A stretch of DNA of 64,000 nt from Escherichia coli (GCF_011045215.1 NZ_CP049201.1); one strand, 5' to 3'; shown: positions 3,428 to 62,107, numbered from the stretch's first letter. The notes: generated by a model not told the origin, from the letters alone. Made by a program: numbers and translations.

Positions 3428-3515
3428 GGTGAGGTGTCCGAGTGGCTGAAGGAGCACGCCTGGAAAGTGTGTATACGGCAACGTATCGGGGGTTCGAATC
3501 CCCCCCTCACCGCCA
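3428..3515 (+). tRNA. serX: tRNA-Ser (anticodon GGA), serX
   Basis: 88-nt sequence GGTGAGGTGTCCGAGTGGCTGAAGGAGCACGCCTGGAAAGTGTGTATACGGCAACGTATCGGGGGTTCGAATCCCCCCCTCACCGCCA with long variable arm and CCA end; K-12 synteny between ghrA and ycdU. Confidence 0.95.
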
Positions 3516-3664: not shown

Positions 3665-4507
3665 CTATACTGCCAGCATATCAGGATAGTGTTTTGCGAT
3701 AATATCATTCAGTCTGTCAACCAGTTCTGGTTTTCTGAACGTGATATGCGCGGAGCCCTTCTTAAAGTATCTGATGCTGAACATCTCATCTTCATAGCTC
3801 TCTTTACCCTGAACAGACTGAATGTGATCATCCAGACGAAGGGTGATGTTTCCCCGGTTGTCGGGGATTGGTTTACCGCTGAACAGGTGCAACATTCTTT
3901 CCAGATCGGCGAGTCGATCTGCCTGTTGCCCGGTGATAAGGTGAAATCCCCACCGGTCCCACCTCACCAGGTTGTTGACGATAATTTTACTGCCAAATTT
4001 GCAGGGGCAATTGGTTTTGTAATTCCAGTTCAATCCTCTGAAGACGTTGATCACCCCTCGCTCAAACACCTCATCCTTATTCTGGTGCAGTTGTTCAAAT
4101 GTGCTCAGAATGTTCGCTTCGCTGATTTCCGGAAAATTATCGTACTCCAGTGACCGGTACCATGTATCACGGGCCTGCGTATCCATTAATGACAGCATCC
4201 CGGAACGTTGCATCAGGTCACGCCAGATTTCGCGATCAAGATTCCGGGTAATGGCTTTCATTGCTGTTTCGGGTTTCTCCATCAGCCAGCAACCGCAGCG
4301 AAAATCCTGTTTCATGGCCCAGTCCGGGGCAGTTTTACCTCCGATGCTTTCCGTCAGCACCGAGATTTCAGCCAGTTGTCGGATAAGTGTGTCGATTTGC
4401 AACAGTGTACTCTTTCGTACAGCCAGAATGTGGCGAATGCTGGTTGAGCAGATAACGTCCGTATGCCCGTTGACCACTTCCGGACGGGAGATTGTGATAT
4501 CTGACAT
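3665..4507 (-). CDS. Hypothetical protein, first island gene next to tRNA (possibly DUF4942-like)
   Basis: 280-aa ORF; occupies the position after the cbtA/yeeW block typical of CP4-like islands; family assignment from memory only. Confidence 0.5.
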   Translation of the reverse strand: MSDITISRPEVVNGHTDVICSTSIRHILAVRKSTLLQIDTLIRQLAEISVLTESIGGKTAPDWAMKQDFRCGCWLMEKPETAMKAITRNLDREIWRDLMQRSGMLSLMDTQARDTWYRSLEYDNFPEISEANILSTFEQLHQNKDEVFERGVINVFRGLNWNYKTNCPCKFGSKIIVNNLVRWDRWGFHLITGQQADRLADLERMLHLFSGKPIPDNRGNITLRLDDHIQSVQGKESYEDEMFSIRYFKKGSAHITFRKPELVDRLNDIIAKHYPDMLAV

Positions 4508-51598: not shown

Positions 51599-52372
51599 AT
51601 GAATAAAGCTGAAGTTCTGGAAAAAGGTTATTGGATTGAAATCAGTATTGATGCATATGCACAAAAAGTTAAGGGTATATCACGAGATGACTACCCACCA
51701 TTACGTTGTATCTCATGCGAGAAACCTGTCCATGATAGCGGATTAGTCACTCCCAATCCTGATTATAGCCCCAGATTCTCTCATTCCGCTTCACCAGAAA
51801 ATAAAGAGTTCTGTCCCCTAAGCGCAAGATCTCAACGTTTTTCTGGTTTTTCAGGTAATGAACGCTCTGCTTCAGCAGAAATTGCAGTATCTCGCCGAAA
51901 TCAATTCATGCAATTTGATAACCTCTATCGGGCCTGGGTTGTTTGTAGAGCATTAAGGGGAGGTGAAGGGAAGCTTGATCAAAAATCATTCATTCGGATG
52001 GTCAGGATCGCGGATAGTTTTGGGATCTGGCATTATAGCTATATGCCTGACTGGGGAATCCCTCTTATGCTAATGTTAATGGATAACCACCCGACACCAA
52101 ATGGTAAATCAACTTTTTTCTATTCATTAAAAAAAGAACGTGTTCGAAAAGGTGTAAAATGGCAAGATCTAAATGTCAGACTTGAAGCACATTGGGTAAA
52201 TGGTGGTAACCGCATAGTTCCAAATAAAGATAAAAAAGCTTCATTCTTGCTCACCATTCCATTTGCTAAGTCTGTTATTGATGAAATACTGAGTAAAGAA
52301 AATCTGTCATGGTGCTCAAAAAACTCTCTACCAATATTGCATTCTTTTAGCATTAGAGCTTTAACCACTTAA
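51599..52372 (+). CDS. Hypothetical protein (257 aa), AT-rich
   Basis: ORF co-oriented with 50896..51291; no motif recognised. Confidence 0.5.
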   Translation: MNKAEVLEKGYWIEISIDAYAQKVKGISRDDYPPLRCISCEKPVHDSGLVTPNPDYSPRFSHSASPENKEFCPLSARSQRFSGFSGNERSASAEIAVSRRNQFMQFDNLYRAWVVCRALRGGEGKLDQKSFIRMVRIADSFGIWHYSYMPDWGIPLMLMLMDNHPTPNGKSTFFYSLKKERVRKGVKWQDLNVRLEAHWVNGGNRIVPNKDKKASFLLTIPFAKSVIDEILSKENLSWCSKNSLPILHSFSIRALTT

Positions 52373-52662
52373 TTGAGGAAGTAATGATACAAGCTACAGT
52401 ATTGGTGACGAATCTATAGACAAGGAGATAAAAACCAAATATCAGAATTATTTTTGATAGTGCTGGTAAAGAAGCGGTGTTTGATATCAGCATGTTTATC
52501 GGAAAAAAGCTTACCTGGAGCTTTGAAAAATTGCAAAGCAGGGCCTGACAATGAAGGCCCTAATACTGTACTAAATGTTAACTCAGTACCAAATCACAAG
52601 GAAAAGTATTTTTTCTGGTAAGATTCTATATACATAATAAATCACCTTATAGTTACAATAGG

Positions 52663-53166
52663 TCAAAAACCGCTGTAGCCAAAGTTACGCTGGCCTGATG
52701 CTTTAGTGTCGAGCTTCGTCAAATAATCCAGACGTACCAATAAGCGCTGGTACTGCTCAGGGAAATCAGGATCGTTAATATCCAGGATGTAACGCCCATT
52801 AGTAGGGAAATGAACTAATCCCTGGTGATCTTCCAGTTCCAACCCTAAGGCACTGTACCAGGCTCCGGTAATTAACCCTCTCAGGGTGTCAGAGCGCTCA
52901 TAGTCTCCCAGGTGGTAATAGGCGTCTTTGTTAAACAACAGGCAGACGTGATAATGACATTTAAAGGACTGCGTATATTCTTTCGCCCAGATAATACAAA
53001 CCGACGTTGCGTAGGTGCGTTTGCCTTGTTGTTTTTTACGGTGTTGATCTGCATTAATTTTCGCATTCAGCGAGTTACGGAAACGAGATATTTCTCCGGG
53101 GGTCAGGTTAGGAAAACAGGTAATGGTATCCCCGTTGTCAATCACAGGAGGGTAATGGAGATCCAC
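52663..53166 (-). CDS. YagK/YfjJ-family (inovirus Gp2-type) protein, short form
   Basis: CHYHVCLLFNKDAYYHLG resembles the conserved HYH-x-LF-x-x-DAY motif region of YfjJ-like proteins. Confidence 0.6.
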   Translation of the reverse strand: MDLHYPPVIDNGDTITCFPNLTPGEISRFRNSLNAKINADQHRKKQQGKRTYATSVCIIWAKEYTQSFKCHYHVCLLFNKDAYYHLGDYERSDTLRGLITGAWYSALGLELEDHQGLVHFPTNGRYILDINDPDFPEQYQRLLVRLDYLTKLDTKASGQRNFGYSGF

Positions 53167-53280
53167 CCGTATTGCTGTTATTCTGGAAGTATTTTTAATA
53201 TTCGTATTGATAGTTCTCAGAGATATATCACACTCTAGATATTTTAATTAAGTATCAGTTCGATATCGGCATATTGTACA

Positions 53281-53644
53281 CTACCTCTGGTAGATGATGA
53301 GATCAGATACAGGGATCAACTGACGGTGAGCGCAGTCCCCACATTTTATCCAGGGCTTACTGCATATTCCCAACAGCCATTCGTTAGCCAGGTAGACGAA
53401 TACCCTTTCCGCTGGTTTTGCTTTCCCATCGAAGGGCCCATACATCATCACGCCCGCGAAACAGTCGACAAAATAACGCAACTTTCTCATCCGTGGATAA
53501 TACGAAAACGCACTGCACAGGGCTCTGCGGTTTACGTCGCCATTCAATCCCATGAGCTTCAAGTAATGAGACCAGCCGGGTATTTTCTGCCCGCAGTACT
53601 GCTAGTTCATCGCTGTCAGATTTATAAACCATATGCGTTATCAC
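53281..53644 (-). pseudogene. Frameshifted 5' remnant of a larger gene
   Basis: Two overlapping minus-strand ORFs in different frames (53384..53644 and 53281..53562) that read like consecutive parts of one N-terminus; no continuation downstream. Confidence 0.4.
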
Positions 53645-53738
53645 TTGTACCTGTCTCCCGGCGGCACCACGACTGAAATTCGTGTGAAGGCAAATCCACG
53701 CGATAACTTACGATAGTTCGGACATAAGCCCCCATAAT

Positions 53739-54302
53739 TCAGTTATGTCGTGGTCGGCCGCGGTTACTTTTTTCGGGAAGCCTGCTACGCCCCAGAATAA
53801 TACCGTGTTCTTTCTGATCCTGTTTCGCCAGATAGCTAAGGGCGTAACGTAAGTCGTCTACCGCAGATTTATCACTATAGTGAATTACATGATCGATACG
53901 CACCGGGTATTTATCTTTAGCCCGGCACAGGTGAAAATAACCCTCCCCTTCCGTGATCCGCCTCCAGATATCTCCCAGTTGCCTGGATATCTGATAAGAG
54001 TTCTTGTGACGTTGTCCATCCAGATAGCCGATAAAATGAATATGAAGCCCTTTGTCTGGTGTATATTCCATTACCCAGTAATATCCCGCCAACATCGTCT
54101 GGGTTTCGCTAAGTAAGCGGTACATTTCCATACACATACTGTGCTTACAGGAAAGACCAAAACTGGGCGTGTCTTTCCTGTAAGCAAAATCAATTCTGAA
54201 AGGTAACAGTTTAGAAAAACGTTGAAACAGACCTTCCATGTGTTCATTCACATCTTTCAGAATCGCGAAATTCATTTCGTAATTGGGATTGGCATTATAC
54301 AT
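53739..54302 (-). CDS. YagK/YfjJ-family (inovirus Gp2-type) protein
   Basis: LPFRIDFAYRKD ... GLHIHFIGYLDG pattern as in YfjJ-like island proteins. Confidence 0.6.
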   Translation of the reverse strand: MYNANPNYEMNFAILKDVNEHMEGLFQRFSKLLPFRIDFAYRKDTPSFGLSCKHSMCMEMYRLLSETQTMLAGYYWVMEYTPDKGLHIHFIGYLDGQRHKNSYQISRQLGDIWRRITEGEGYFHLCRAKDKYPVRIDHVIHYSDKSAVDDLRYALSYLAKQDQKEHGIILGRSRLPEKSNRGRPRHN

Positions 54303-55240
54303 TTTATAGTCCTTACTTTATAAAACTGACAGGAAAGTGGAATTACATAAATACTGAGAGTACAGAAACGCCGTACCGCGGCATTAATAAAAGAGGTAAC
54401 CAGCAGCACAGACAACCTGATAAAACTGTTTCGTATTACCTCATTACAGTAATAGGGTAATGATTCAGAATACAGTAAGACTTTCTTAAACTGAGGACCA
54501 GAACGAATTACAATAAAAAACACACCTCATATAATTGAGTTTAAGAAAGCACCATTCAATTACTTACAGGATATAATCTGATCTTCACAAAAGTCAGTAC
54601 CGGGTAGCCACAGACAACATCGCTATTAATATTGCCGTACCATTAAGTAAAAACAGAGACTCTGCAGAGAGAGCCTACAGATATTTAACCTCACAATAAG
54701 AAGATTATTTCATACAGAAAATATTATATTTACCTATGCTTATAAACTGTAACGGAGCCATAACATACTCTAATAGTGTTCCGGTACGTAACCAGTGTTA
54801 AGTGCGTACAAGACAACATAACATAACAGATTTATGTTCCCAACATTACACCACATAATTCACCATACAGCTTCCCCCCATATGCTTCACTGCGTAGTGT
54901 ATGGAGATATATGTATTACACACATACAGAATACTTAGCATAGAGAGGAGTGACATTACGATAAAAGAGACAACATAACAGATCACATAACTCCCACTAA
55001 TAATACTAATTAACCTAAATTATTTATTGAACACGAAAACAATGAAGGCCCCACCTCACCTCAGACTAAAGCCGACAATATCCTGAGCAACACTCTATCC
55101 AATAGTAAATAGTGGTTACACCAGTTATATTTACTGACTGACCTGTACCAGAGTTTTCTAATACAACGCTGACATGGTAAAGACATTAGTCTCCTCCGCA
55201 AGTAGCAGAGGAGACTATATGTACTCAACGATTAAGTCGT

Positions 55241-56692
55241 TCAGAGGTCAAAGTTAGGTGCGACACACAACGTTTTTCCCTCAATAACCGGTACAACTCT
55301 GTTTTGTTCATACAGTAAATCCAGTAACCAGTTGATTTTATCCTTTTTCCGGAAACGGTTCGGGCCACGCTGTAAAATGTCATTTTTTTTCATACAGAGG
55401 ATCCCCTTCTCAATGCAATAGCTTTTTATCCAGTTGAAAAGTTCAAGCTCCTCTGGAATGAGTCGCACAGGTACGGTCAGGGCGGAGTTGTCAAAAGTTA
55501 ACGGATTAGACAACCGCACATACTCATTACCGTACCATATTGCTAATTCTCTCGCCATTTCTGCAGTGTAAGGGGAAATCTCCCCCTCTTCACCGCTCGA
55601 ATGGTAAATAAGTCCTGCCAGTCTTGCCATATACTCTGCATTTTTAGCAGCATATTCCCGGCAATGTCTTAAAGGCCCCAATCCCCCCAGCTTCGATTCC
55701 ACATCATTGTAATAATCCGTCCAGATTCTGGCAGCCTGAGGAGAAAAGTGAAGGCAACGTCGTTCACCACTCATCGCCAGACTTTCATCAATAAGCTCAT
55801 TGATCCTCTCTTCAAACAAATCCTGATACTGTGATGAATAATTATCTCCGGTTATTATCCTTGTCCCCTGCGTTGATGTTGGTTGACACATCAAAAACCT
55901 TGCATGATGTCCTGACGTTTTCACAAGTTCTTTTTTTCGCGTACAAAAACCTTTGTGGTAAACATCAGGCTGAATCATCACCGATATCGTCAGTCTTGGC
56001 TCCTTCAAATTAATTCCGGGAGATGATTTCCTGTCGATGAAAAGAGAACCTCCATCCCACAAAGTGTTAATAATTCCCAGTTTACTCATGGCCCGGCTGT
56101 CAAAAATTACCCCCCCTTCACTGGATACAAGAGCAAAAGAGCGATTGCTATCAGAGTAATATTTTAACATTCCCTCTATCGTTGTCTCATTAAAAATTGT
56201 TCGACGTATCTGCGGCGGAACAGGAGATTTATTCAGATGCGTTTCAAGCTCTGATTCTGTTGCCTTGTAATCTTTACCGGCACGAATCTCTTTATGAAAT
56301 TTTGATTCCAGCGCTTTTTGTTTTTGCTCCCATATTTCCTTTTCTGTACTGTAATTCTCAACCAGTTTCGCGTATTCTTCCGCCAGGGCTTCATCCCTGA
56401 GATAAAATGCTTTCATAAACACTTTATCCACGGTCGTTTTCCTTTCACCGGAATCAGCCAGAATCAGAGAGTAAAGATTAACAGGCCCATGTAAATTTCC
56501 AGGTCTGCACACGTCAATCTGATTCTGACAGGCAATTGAGATCGCTGTTAATGCGGATGTTGCCACCATAGCCAAAGGTGCCTGTGTATTTTTTTGAGTT
56601 TCAATTATTGCATTTCTCACCAGCGGTGGTAGTGCATATATCGGATAAGGATTTTCTGGTGCAAGTAAGCACATAAAAGCCTCTCTTTTCAT
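55241..56692 (-). CDS. DUF3987-family protein (YfjI-like), usual partner of AlpA in P4-type islands
   Basis: 483-aa ORF downstream of alpA; start codon uncertain. Confidence 0.65.
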   Translation of the reverse strand: MKREAFMCLLAPENPYPIYALPPLVRNAIIETQKNTQAPLAMVATSALTAISIACQNQIDVCRPGNLHGPVNLYSLILADSGERKTTVDKVFMKAFYLRDEALAEEYAKLVENYSTEKEIWEQKQKALESKFHKEIRAGKDYKATESELETHLNKSPVPPQIRRTIFNETTIEGMLKYYSDSNRSFALVSSEGGVIFDSRAMSKLGIINTLWDGGSLFIDRKSSPGINLKEPRLTISVMIQPDVYHKGFCTRKKELVKTSGHHARFLMCQPTSTQGTRIITGDNYSSQYQDLFEERINELIDESLAMSGERRCLHFSPQAARIWTDYYNDVESKLGGLGPLRHCREYAAKNAEYMARLAGLIYHSSGEEGEISPYTAEMARELAIWYGNEYVRLSNPLTFDNSALTVPVRLIPEELELFNWIKSYCIEKGILCMKKNDILQRGPNRFRKKDKINWLLDLLYEQNRVVPVIEGKTLCVAPNFDL

Positions 56693-56892
56693 TAATGGGT
56701 TAGTAAAATAGCAGCAACTCCCGCTACAATAGCGAAAATAGCTGCTATTCAGACCTGATGCTCTGAGAAATACTGAGCATTTGTAGATCTGATGTTTAAT
56801 AAACCGATAAGGTTAATTCAGTGCAGACTGTATTATTTACCACGAAATATCATTCATATTTCTCATTCTTAATACCTCCAGAAATTATTTCA

Positions 56893-57090
56893 CTAATACC
56901 TTTCCCCCGGTCTTTTCCCTTTCTCCAGAACCATAGTGTAAATATTAACGGCCCCACGTAAATTTCCGGGGCTGCATACGTCAACCTGATTCTGACAGGC
57001 AATTGACATCGCTGTTAATACTGACATTGCAACCAGAGTCAGAGGTACTTGTTTATTGTATTGAGCTTTAATTATTGCCTTCCCTATCAT
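56893..57090 (-). pseudogene. Duplicated 5' fragment of the DUF3987 gene
   Basis: 65-aa ORF ...LTLVAMSVLTAMSIACQNQVDVCSPGNLRGAVNIY... paralogous to residues ~35-80 of the 55241..56692 product. Confidence 0.6.
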
Positions 57091-57316
57091 TGATGGTCAC
57101 GTATATACTGAATACGGCATATCCGGTTTGATGTAAGACATAAATGCTTCCTTTTTCGTAATACGTTTCGGTTATAGCAGCAATTACCGCTACAATAGCG
57201 ACAATAGCTGCTCTTTCAACAATGAATGCTGGAAATTCTGTTTATCAATTAAACTTCTGGCTAAATTGTTCTTATGCTTCTTTTTCCTCCTGAGGTGATC
57301 ACGTGATGACAAAAAC

Positions 57317-57625
57317 TTATCTGCTCATGGTCATATCTGAAGAAAGCGTATGTCGCACTTCGTCATTAACACCTTTGACTGCTGATCTGGCAGGTACAGT
57401 ATGTAAAGTAAGCCATTCGTCAATAGCTGATGAACGCCAGCCCACAGAACCACTACCAAGACGTACCGGCCTGGGGAAGGTTGCATCGTAGTATTTCGAT
57501 AACGGATTCATTTTTTCGTAAATTGTCGAACGAGATATACCTAACAATTGGCTCAGTTCAGGCATCCGTAAGATGCGTGAAGGAGTCCAGCAGTATCCGG
57601 ATTGATCTGGCATTTTATCCCCCAT
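57317..57625 (-). CDS. alpA: AlpA-family phage-type transcriptional regulator (excisionase-like)
   Basis: LRMPELSQLLGISRSTIYEKMNPLSKYYDATFPRPVRLGSGSVGWRSSAIDEWL matches the AlpA HTH core; start uncertain (ORF extends to 57697). Confidence 0.75.
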   Translation of the reverse strand: MGDKMPDQSGYCWTPSRILRMPELSQLLGISRSTIYEKMNPLSKYYDATFPRPVRLGSGSVGWRSSAIDEWLTLHTVPARSAVKGVNDEVRHTLSSDMTMSR

Positions 57626-57836
57626 AGTGTGGTGAACTGTCGTTACAGTTTGTATTCCCCGGGTAAATTTGTCTGCGTAAAAAAATGGGCTGAGCAAAAA
57701 GACAATAAATAATTAAAAATCAATACGATAGAAAACAACAGCATTATTGTTATTTTACTTTCTCCTTATCACTGTCGATTCTCATTATCATTCATTGGTA
57801 AAAAAACAGCAAAAGAGGCCCTGGTAATGACTCCAG

Positions 57837-58229
57837 TCAGTAGTACAGTGTTTTCGATAAATGAACCAATGGCTTTTCGTGAATTTCCAGGGAGCGTGAA
57901 AAGCAAATCGTTTTCCGGGCTGGTCGTTTGATGTGAGTACGAAGTGTCAGATTGTTGCGCTCAATGCGCCGGGTAAATATCTTGCCGACAAGATGCTTAT
58001 CCTGTGGCATTTCTCTGGTATAACTGCTCCGGTTGTCTCTGGTTATCATGCCTGTGGAGAATGGCTTCAGGAGTTCCGGCAACTCACGACATGTTTCATC
58101 AGTGCGAGGACCAAAAGTGTAAGCCAGCACACCTCCAGATTTGGTGTTATACGCATACCAGTGCCACTGCTGACGAGCTTTGTTTTCGACAAAACTCCAT
58201 TGTTCATCAAGTTCGCAGATAAGCGCCAC
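57837..58229 (-). mobile_element. IS1-family transposase (InsB-like) remnant, diverged and truncated
   Basis: ICELDEQW...YAY...RIERNNLTLR resembles the IS1 InsB core; no intact InsA or terminal repeats identified. Confidence 0.45.
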
Positions 58230-60730: not shown

Positions 60731-61933
60731 TTATTTATTCACAATTTGAGACATCACATAATCCGCCCATGCCTGCATCATCGGTACACGCTGCTCCAGT
60801 AGATCAGTGCGATGATATGCCGCCTCAACCTTATTTTTCAGCGTATGAGCGAGCGCCCTTTCCGCCAGATCCCGCGAATACCCCTGTTCACTACACCAGT
60901 CCCTGAATGTTGAGCGAAAACCATGTGCCGTGGCAACTCGCCCCGGAATGTCACTGACGGCTTTCTTTTTACGCAGAAAACTTGTCAACACCATATCGGA
61001 AAGGATCTGCTGCTTTCTGGGTGAAGGGAACACCAGTTCATCATGCAGGCCACGTATATTTTCCAGAATGTAAATAGCCTGCCGGGATAAAGGAACACGA
61101 TGCTGTAGCCTAGCTTTCATTCTTTCTGCAGGTATAGTCCATACCCGCTTATGAAAATCAATTTCAGCCCAGCGCATTCCCCTGGCTTCGCCCGAGCGAG
61201 TTGCTGTAAGTATCACCATTAATAACAGTGCGCGGGTAACATTATAAGGTTCATCACTATACACACTGGTCGCCACAAAAAGCGGTAACTGCCTCCAGGG
61301 CATTGCGGGTTGGTGTTCATCACGTCCTCTTGTCTGCTGAGGAAGCAAATGGTCAACCACATCAACAGGATTTGCCACACAAAAACCGTGCGCCCATCCC
61401 CACTGCATAACAACATGAATGCGCTGTTTAACCCGGCTTGCCGTTTCTGACAAGGTTAACCAGACTGGACGCAATGTTTCTGCCACGTCCGCAGCCGTAA
61501 TCGAATCCAGCGTTTTTGCTCCCAGTTGAGGAAACGCGTAATTCTCAAGCGTCGATAACCACTGCCTTACATGCTTTGGATTTTCCCATCCAGGAGACAG
61601 TTCTGCATGTACACGCCTGGCTGCATCGGCAAATGTTGGGATAACGACTTTCTCAGATTCAGCCTTTTTAATCTCCAGAGGATCATCACCTGCAGCAAGT
61701 TGCTCTCGCATTATCCGGGCAGTACGTGCAGCTTCAGCAATACTGACCTCTGGGTAAGTTCCCAATCCAGCATTACGTCTTTTTTGTGTCACCGGACTTA
61801 CATAACGAAAAACCCATTTCCCCCGCCCCTTTACTGAAGAAGGATGAAGGGTCAGTCCGGTAATTCCCCCATGGGGCAATGGTTTGTCATCAGGTTTGAT
61901 ATGTCTTGCTTTCGTATCCGTCAATACTGCCAT
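60731..61933 (-). CDS. P4-type tyrosine integrase
   Basis: 400-aa ORF with catalytic R...HxxR...Y core (ATAHGFRSTFRDW; C-terminal tyrosine region) adjacent to the tRNA-3'-end repeat. Confidence 0.9.
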   Translation of the reverse strand: MAVLTDTKARHIKPDDKPLPHGGITGLTLHPSSVKGRGKWVFRYVSPVTQKRRNAGLGTYPEVSIAEAARTARIMREQLAAGDDPLEIKKAESEKVVIPTFADAARRVHAELSPGWENPKHVRQWLSTLENYAFPQLGAKTLDSITAADVAETLRPVWLTLSETASRVKQRIHVVMQWGWAHGFCVANPVDVVDHLLPQQTRGRDEHQPAMPWRQLPLFVATSVYSDEPYNVTRALLLMVILTATRSGEARGMRWAEIDFHKRVWTIPAERMKARLQHRVPLSRQAIYILENIRGLHDELVFPSPRKQQILSDMVLTSFLRKKKAVSDIPGRVATAHGFRSTFRDWCSEQGYSRDLAERALAHTLKNKVEAAYHRTDLLEQRVPMMQAWADYVMSQIVNK

Positions 61934-62090: not shown

Positions 62091-62107
62091 GGTCCCCCTC
62101 ACCGCCA
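62091..62107. repeat. Direct repeat of the serX 3' end (island distal att site)
   Basis: ggtccccctcaccgcca; ccccctcaccgcca matches serX 3' end at 3502..3515. Confidence 0.8.

Follow-up and report, generated by a model that had tools for sequence, protein, structure and literature searches.

What does a gap of almost 1 kb between two genes of an Escherichia coli integrative island contain, and is any part of it under constraint? The gap in question occupies positions 54303–55240 (938 bp; 820–1012 bp in related islands) of a 64-kb window of E. coli DNA (NZ_CP049201.1), the window being the whole stretch analysed, with positions counted from its first letter. The genes on either side are on the minus strand: a yfjI-like DUF3987 gene (55241–56692, minus strand; PF13148, E 5e-84; assigned to the YfjI family where homologues are annotated) and a gene for a 187-aa HUH Rep-like protein (53739–54302, minus strand), here called rep, which is described as “inovirus-type Gp2” or YagK/YfjJ-related and is equivalent to ECs_1304 of the island SpLE1 of strain Sakai. 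A first-pass annotation of the window had delimited the gap and named its flanking genes correctly, and had suggested a noncoding RNA, an origin-like region or a degraded gene as its content. Overall the gap is ordinary, comprising a terminator-like hairpin and a mostly freely drifting spacer, apart from a 33-nt block that is conserved with rep across genera. We read this block as the promoter and operator of rep and of the insertion sequence (IS)-excision enhancer gene, iee, that follows rep in intact islands, with a long leader behind it, and the gap as the junction of two transcription units in the integrase-proximal module of an SpLE1/O-island 43/48/SRL-type integrative island. This is the best explanation we can offer, and we put the chance that it holds at about even.

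Regions 5' of Rep homologues were collected from other genomes and compared. A gap free of open reading frames (ORFs), 360 to ∼1450 bp long, precedes every rep examined, irrespective of the upstream gene or its direction, and the only stretch over which these gaps align is one of ∼33 nt. In the window this block, AATTtAGGTTAATTAGTATTATTAGTGGGAGT, lies at 54989–55021 on the minus strand, and in the sense of the gene it has the form AATTAAGGTTAATTA[G/A]TATTATT....G[G/A]AGT (or, with r for G/A, AATTAAGGTTAATTArTATTATT…GrAGT). It is found 5' of Rep homologues ranging in identity from 97% down to 36%, in 12 lineages comprising several E. coli island types, Escherichia albertii, another Escherichia species, Citrobacter, Erwinia, Edaphovirga, Budvicia, Atlantibacter and Rouxiella, always in the orientation of rep and at 84–1154 nt from its start codon. 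The best 20-mer shared by nine lineages has 26 mismatches in total, compared with 53.0 ± 1.3 in locally shuffled controls. In Rouxiella (L018), the most compact lineage, the block ends ∼45 nt before an AGGAG ribosome-binding site (RBS).

The block tracks rep and not yfjI. Across 5,426 complete E. coli genomes it is present in 2,098, and a near-full-length rep in 2,031 (∼37% of the genomes); the block of Sakai (L029) is identical to that of the window. E. albertii carries a 97%-identical Rep together with the block beside a yfjI that is only 39% identical, and in strain YD786 and Citrobacter the gene 5' of the block encodes a protein of ∼610 aa; in L038 the upstream gene is one of 607 aa. The block is also retained with rep beside divergently oriented upstream genes (L013, L015, L016–L018, L022 and L037). 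Neither the annotation of ∼1,590 homologous records nor the literature searched on SpLE1, IEE, YfjI/YfjJ/YagK and the small RNAs of enterohaemorrhagic E. coli (EHEC) contains a description of the gap or the block, which is a small but real new cis-element of the Rep-like family and of the unit that rep forms with iee.

Variation within the block follows a promoter-like pattern. A candidate –10 hexamer, TAGTAT (55003–55008, minus strand), lies inside it with TTCAAT 17 bp upstream, and the hexamer takes the form TA[G/A][T/C][A/G]T in 12 of 12 lineages: T1, A2 and T6 are invariant and positions 3–5 vary, which matches precisely the constraint on a sigma-70 –10 element. Hexamers resembling the –35 sequence TTGACA are enriched 16–18 bp upstream (mean best score 3.5 vs. 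2.53 elsewhere in the gaps), with scores of at least 4/6 in 8 of the 12 lineages and ATGACA-16-TAATAT in Edaphovirga; a Fisher combination of the per-lineage fractions gives roughly p = 0.03, which is our own estimate from lineages that are not fully independent. The promoter spacer sequence AATTAAGGTTAAT is a near-palindrome as conserved as the hexamer, and the GrAGT near the presumed start is likewise conserved, implying a bound factor. Moreover, the upstream genes are often directed away from rep, which must therefore have its own promoter within the gap, and the block is the only conserved candidate for it.

On the yfjI side of the gap, the perfect 9-bp inverted repeat seen in the first-pass annotation is borne out and belongs to a larger structure (55187–55217, minus strand), which begins 23 nt past the yfjI stop codon and has 13-nt arms (55187–55199 and 55205–55217) around a 5-nt loop. 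On the plus strand the arms carry one C·A mismatch, which on the minus strand turns into G·U, so that the gene-sense RNA folds best, with 13 consecutive pairs of which seven are G–C. Folded in a 79-nt context, this RNA reaches –32.5 kcal/mol against –15.3 ± 2.8 kcal/mol for 200 shuffled sequences (z = –6.1), none of which did as well. The hairpin is kept in 10 of 10 aligned islands and is flagged as terminator-like by a terminator scan, its tail ATGTCTTTAC forming a weak U tract. We read it as a terminator-like 3' hairpin of the yfjI transcript, or possibly a stabilizer of the 3' end of that mRNA, and not as part of an origin.

Most of the remaining gap drifts in a neutral-like manner. In an alignment of ten islands with the window as reference, identity of the gap to the window is 87–98% with 39–196 gapped columns, and in the flanking genes third codon positions are 86–99% identical and first and second positions 95–100%, indicating that the gap drifts at about the synonymous rate or faster. 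Its indels measure 1, 2, 3, 5, 6, 8, 12, 18 and 40 nt and are mostly not multiples of three. The largest difference concerns a 16–21-nt direct repeat, AGACAACATAACAGAT, of which the window has two plus-strand copies: copy 1, AGACAACATAACATAACAGAT (54811–54831), is missing in one haplotype group, and copy 2, AGACAACATAACAGATCACAT (54968–54988), abuts the block and is kept in all E. coli variants. The ∼157 bp between them are cleanly missing in L002, L003 and Sakai, which represent the commonest form, 820 bp long, and evidently this stretch is removed by recombination between the two repeats. Taken together, the neutral-like drift, the indels and the 157-bp loss make it doubtful that the gap encodes a conserved protein or an RNA that is both long and structured. 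The gap sequence itself was found in 1,586 of the 5,426 E. coli genomes at 80–98% identity. A phage collection gave no match to it, and those in a plasmid collection are again this unannotated sequence of E. coli, for the most part in plasmid-labelled records of very large size.

The block divides the gap into two parts that follow different neighbours. The yfjI-proximal segment (55022–55186, ∼165 nt, minus strand) is near-invariant among islands with this yfjI allele and is swapped together with yfjI, in that the E. albertii sequence L011, with its 39%-identical yfjI, does not align there; the segment shows no apparent sign of a function of its own. On the other side, the T/G-rich leader or spacer (54303–54988, ∼690 nt, minus strand) is indel-rich and variable in length and runs to the RBS TAAGGA before the ATG at 54302. 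Its rep-proximal 390–455 nt travel with this rep allele, with 81–85% identity in L011 and L038.

In the mechanism that we propose, the hairpin would end or stabilize the yfjI transcript, and the ∼165 nt beyond it would simply travel with the yfjI allele. The block would then act as the core promoter of rep (and of iee where that gene is intact) with TAGTAT as the –10 element, and AATTAAGGTTAAT in the spacer and GrAGT near the start would provide the operator at which a regulator of the element acts, this regulator being perhaps Rep itself or the AlpA-type protein. We infer that transcription starts at the block and passes through ∼690 nt of largely unconstrained leader before reaching the RBS and ATG of rep. 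As a reason for so long a leader, we considered antitermination of the kind performed by an AlpA-type protein of Pseudomonas aeruginosa and set it aside as only remotely conceivable here, as that AlpA is larger and has its own GGGACG site; the literature examined on it draws no link to the AlpA family of E. coli.

Several observations weigh against a promoter/operator at the block. L018 and L024 have no –35-like hexamer, and the –35 region itself is unconserved. A generic promoter scan made no minus-strand call in the gap because TTCAAT matches at three of six positions only, and a conservation that continues unbroken through 33 nt, spacer included, is unusual for a plain promoter. The putative leader is highly variable in length, from 84 to 1154 nt, and the 12 lineages on which the pattern is based are not fully independent of one another. 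At the yfjI end, the hairpin tail AUGUCUUUAC has the five T in eight of the loose scan rule, yet it is interrupted and weak.

The alternative that survives best is an origin of replication, and it draws its strength from the neighbouring gene. Homologues of Rep, with identities from ∼35% to 96%, occur in Salmonella, Erwinia, Citrobacter, Yersinia, Limnobaculum and Rouxiella, and their alignment contains FRIDF, G.H.H (GLHIH, with H87 and H89 invariant) and YALSYLAK (Y157 and K160 invariant). From their sequences, we identify FRIDF, G.H.H and SYLAK as the three motifs of HUH rolling-circle initiators. The structure of Rep is modelled confidently (pLDDT 89.8) as an alpha/beta sandwich, and the matches to this model include the HUH nucleases SIRV1 ORF119 and B19 NS1 among many generic ones. 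Rep has weak Pfam matches to REP_ORF2-G2P, and some of its relatives are named rolling-circle replication-associated protein. A sequence search of the PDB with a Rep profile gave no match, and NCBIfam gave none for Rep or YfjI. A 2025 preprint independently describes such tRNA-integrated islands as satellite-like elements with AlpA-like excisionases and HUH replication initiators, and proposes that they replicate by means of the latter (PMC12458937).

Accepting Rep as an initiator, the block could be a double-strand origin recognized and nicked by Rep, and the gap the rolling-circle origin region of the excised island, with the helicase-like YfjI protein and the primase-polymerase IEE assisting; a promoter may coexist with it. 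This is a possibility that we take seriously but do not consider probable. In its favour are, besides the invariant HUH and YxxK motifs of the flanking gene, its weak Pfam matches, the naming of its relatives and the published proposal, the properties of the block itself, which is contiguous, ∼30 nt long, oriented and the sole element conserved with rep at variable distance. The suggestion of an origin-like region in the first-pass annotation thus retains some life for this one block beside a HUH Rep-like gene, and loses it elsewhere: the gap has no DnaA boxes (allowing up to one mismatch), no IHF consensus sites and no iteron array or larger internal repeats, ∼200-bp segments compared pairwise being no more similar than shuffles.

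At the block, too, the expected hallmarks of a nick site are missing. In a test of ten lineages against shuffles, no shared DNA hairpin places the nick-like motif TA(G/A)TATTAT in a loop, the energies being –0.2 to –6.6 kcal/mol, and folding is better than that of shuffles only in L037 and L014 (z = –2.7 and –2.0, respectively). No conserved iterons lie adjacent to the block, the TTATGTTG/ACATAAC repeats being restricted to Escherichia lineages. In addition, variation of the motif spares T1, A2 and T6, as in a –10 element, and –35-like hexamers stand at the right spacing, so that conservation fits a sigma-70 –10 element better than a nick site. It is the absence of the motif hairpin and of conserved flanking iterons that leads us to rank the promoter/operator first and the origin second. 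The two can overlap in rolling-circle replicons, as promoter and origin coexist in geminivirus, circovirus and many rolling-circle plasmid origins. The A/T-rich core TA(G/A)TATTAT resembles the nonanucleotides of CRESS-DNA virus origins, TAGTATTAC and TAATATTAC, and in length the block comes close to the 30-nt phiX174 origin; both are likenesses and no more. A more specific form of the idea, in which the block is the nick and recognition site of a chromosomal-island rolling-circle system in which the small HUH Rep amplifies excised SpLE1-type islands, with YfjI and IEE as parts of a replisome belonging to the island, we consider unlikely.

Three small, related microvirus contigs (L030 at 16–33 and 4126–4143, L031 and L033), all with a Rep in the Pfam family REP_ORF2-G2P, contain an 18-nt sequence, AGGTTAATTAATATTATT, that matches the core of the block exactly; L030 is a circular molecule of ∼4.1 kb that also encodes capsid protein F. 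We discounted these as counterparts of the block: the match lies near an intergenic junction on the strand opposite to the genes, the rest of the block is absent, and in a collection of this size a handful of matches would, on a rough estimate, arise by chance.

A different kind of origin, iteron-type and served by YfjI (DUF3987) as in P4-like satellites and phage-inducible chromosomal islands, seems improbable. The gap does lie directly 3' of yfjI, and, as the first-pass annotation had observed, it is AT-rich (GC content 0.36, vs. 0.42–0.50 in the flanking genes). Short direct repeats are present in it as well, and GTTGTCT recurs four times, always in the same direction. However, the block follows rep and is retained next to an exchanged yfjI or with no yfjI at all, the yfjI-proximal segment disappears with a change of yfjI, and the yfjI–yfjJ spacing in CP4-57 of K-12 is just 152 bp. 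Alongside the missing DnaA boxes, IHF consensus and iteron array, the 16-nt repeat has only two copies, of which one can be dispensed with; the repeats vary from one variant to another without being conserved, and the commonest form of the gap lacks the sequence that separates them. The “acataaca-type” repeats of the first-pass annotation are real but modest, as ACATAAC occurs four times in the gap, always on the plus strand, out of 15 occurrences in the window; copies belong to the 16–21-nt direct repeat, and one additional copy is a window-specific 5-bp tandem duplication. The GTTGTCT copies (minus strand; 54416, 54618, 54817 and 54974), spaced 157–202 bp apart, are 4 of 11 in the window, and only two are conserved among related islands.

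That the gap encodes a noncoding RNA on either strand, whether small and regulatory or long and structured, has little to recommend it. It is long, gene-free and strongly strand-skewed, with an A/C-rich plus strand (AT skew reaching +0.25 and GC skew falling to –0.32), and the island type encodes the small RNA Esr41 elsewhere (PMC8565820). The top promoter-like site of the gap, ATTACA-17-TATAAT (54507–54535, 10/12), is on the plus strand, antisense to the leader. On the other hand, an Rfam scan of 52000–58000 at E ≤ 1 returned just two microRNA families, far below their gathering scores (E 0.15 and 0.88), and the 719-nt leader has no excess structure relative to shuffles (z = –0.43 on the minus strand and –0.97 on the plus strand). 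The gap drifts in a neutral-like way within E. coli, with many indels, and the plus-strand promoter-like site is altered in most related islands (19-bp spacer, TAGAAT). The supplements of a study of the EHEC RNase E interactome do not mention the flanking genes. Esr41 itself was rejected as an RNA of the gap, being located between z1181 and z1182, far from the module (PMC8565820).

Even less credible is a small protein gene, either for a hydrophobic leader peptide or type I toxin 3' of the block or for a 41-codon ORF with its RBS in the hairpin. The hydrophobic ORF has 46 codons from a GTG (54986–54846, minus strand), begins ∼4 nt past the GGGAG of the block, and has relatives of 33–43 codons from an ATG in L007–L011 and L036 that share the core FIVMSLL.ML.ILYV, with the frame maintained across one substitution and a 1-nt indel. 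Nevertheless, the 157-bp deletion of Sakai-type islands cuts it to 19 codons, L005 and L006 have other frames, and no comparable ORF follows the block in the genera other than Escherichia that were compared. The T/G-rich strand is moreover poor in stop codons and readily gives rise to hydrophobic ORFs by chance, and by our composition estimate ∼4% of starts would run for 46 codons; the ORF may specify a leader peptide or toxin that the island can do without, or may simply result from the T-richness of the strand. The 41-codon ORF (55186–55061, minus strand) has a strong RBS sequence, GGAGGAG, inside the 3' arm of the hairpin, 5 nt before its ATG at 55186, yet it ends after two codons in L009 and L036, and the ORF 55061–55228 in the same frame has no Pfam match.

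A decayed gene is the least probable content of all, for although the gap is of gene-like size (0.8–1.0 kb), holds a mechanical 83-codon ORF and corresponds to a gap with a 49-aa Hha/YmoA-family gene in another island type, none of the ∼1,590 homologous records has an annotated feature under the match, bar the edge of yfjI in a few, no phage record matches, the indels are non-triplet, small ORFs are broken or shifted in relatives, the ORFs scanned lack Pfam matches and tblastn finds no Hha remnant in the window. The 83-codon ORF (54272–54523, minus strand) starts with GTG and overlaps the rep start, so that, counted mechanically, it contradicts the first-pass statement that ORFs of at least 60 codons are lacking; it is disrupted by 1-, 2- and 8-nt indels in homologous islands and has no Pfam match. 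The Hha/YmoA-family gene is annotated within the 1.15-kb stretch between block and rep (L037 4287–4436 and L040 4281–4430), and that leader aligns with the window at the block only.

The island in which the block lies measures 58.6 kb and is bounded by 14-bp direct repeats, TGGCGGTGAGGGGG, at 3502–3515 and 62094–62107, the former being the 3' end of a tRNA-Ser GGA gene; 0.01 exact 14-bp pairs are expected by chance, and they coincide with the repeats that a published study gives for both O-islands 43/48 and SRL (PMC3064760). From the integrase end, the order is int (60731–61933), a 605-aa gene, an IS1 remnant, an AlpA-family regulator gene (57317–57697, minus strand; Phage_AlpA, E 9e-19) at the head of the same-strand module, a DUF3987 fragment and yfjI, then the gap, rep, the remnant of an archaeo-eukaryotic primase (AEP/PrimPol) gene (53384–53644, minus strand; AEP-TOTE match) and, 3' of it, a second, canonical YagK/YfjJ pseudogene (52663–53166, minus strand). 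The primase gene follows rep in intact islands: in the Sakai module, ECs_1299 to ECs_1305, where the gap is the ECs_1303–ECs_1304 intergenic region of SpLE1 and O-island 43/48-type islands, it is ECs_1305, encoding IEE, and an intact 786-aa IEE gene is also present in L003 and L009. The succession of an IEE remnant and a second YagK/YfjJ pseudogene suggests that the module was tandemly duplicated and then decayed. A short DUF3987 ORF 5' of yfjI (∼56900–57190; L001 14626–14823) duplicates part of the yfjI 5' end with 73–80% identity.

The block marks the upstream side of a widespread and uncharacterized family of small HUH Rep-like genes in Enterobacterales islands. In SpLE1-type islands, rep heads a unit with iee, whose product, as an IS-excision enhancer, shapes the genome plasticity of EHEC, and the literature examined on IEE does not discuss the expression of iee, its upstream gene or the gap. 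A candidate promoter/operator or origin makes two matters testable: how rep and iee are switched on, and whether the island replicates after excision. Should the block prove to be the nick site of the island, the enhancement of IS excision by IEE would be secondary to its work in a replicase belonging to the island.

Compared with known systems, the alpA–yfjI–yfjJ region of the cryptic prophage CP4-57 in K-12 matches the island in order and strand, with its AlpA regulator gene followed by genes of the DUF3987 and YagK/YfjJ families, but it differs in its 152-bp gap, in a YfjI that is 41% identical, in a YfjJ belonging to the canonical PF11726 branch and in the absence of the block. The sequences upstream of the canonical YagK/YfjJ genes, namely K-12 yfjJ and yagK (L004 6395–6547 and L041 4950–5220) and the second YagK/YfjJ pseudogene of the window (53167–53260), bear at most a loose resemblance to the block, of the form CTTAATT..AGAGT. 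This motif may, on the few sequences at hand, be a distant relative of the block.

Filamentous Ff phages likewise have a long noncoding region directly 5' of a Gp2-type initiator gene (gene II). Their intergenic region is packed with hairpins forming a packaging signal and both origins, whereas neither strand of the gap folds better than chance and conservation is limited to 33 nt. CRESS-DNA viruses and rolling-circle plasmids share with the gap a short conserved element 5' of, and co-oriented with, a HUH rep gene, although there the origin motif sits in the loop of a conserved stem-loop with flanking iterons, which was not found at the block. P4-like satellites and phage-inducible chromosomal islands also combine an AT-rich noncoding stretch beside a DUF3987-type gene with a P4-integrase island and an AlpA regulator; the gap differs from them in lacking an iteron array and in that its conserved element tracks the Rep-like gene and not the helicase-like gene.

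The closest counterpart is SpLE1 of O157:H7 Sakai (O-islands 43/48 of EDL933). The Sakai gap is 820 bp long without the 157-bp inter-repeat stretch, and in the window iee is reduced to a fragment. SpLE1 nevertheless has the order integrase, membrane protein, IS1 remnant, AlpA-type regulator, YfjI, gap, Rep-like gene and IEE, shares with the window island the 14-bp repeats TGGCGGTGAGGGGG at the tRNA-Ser gene, and carries, at the same locus, an exact copy of the block.

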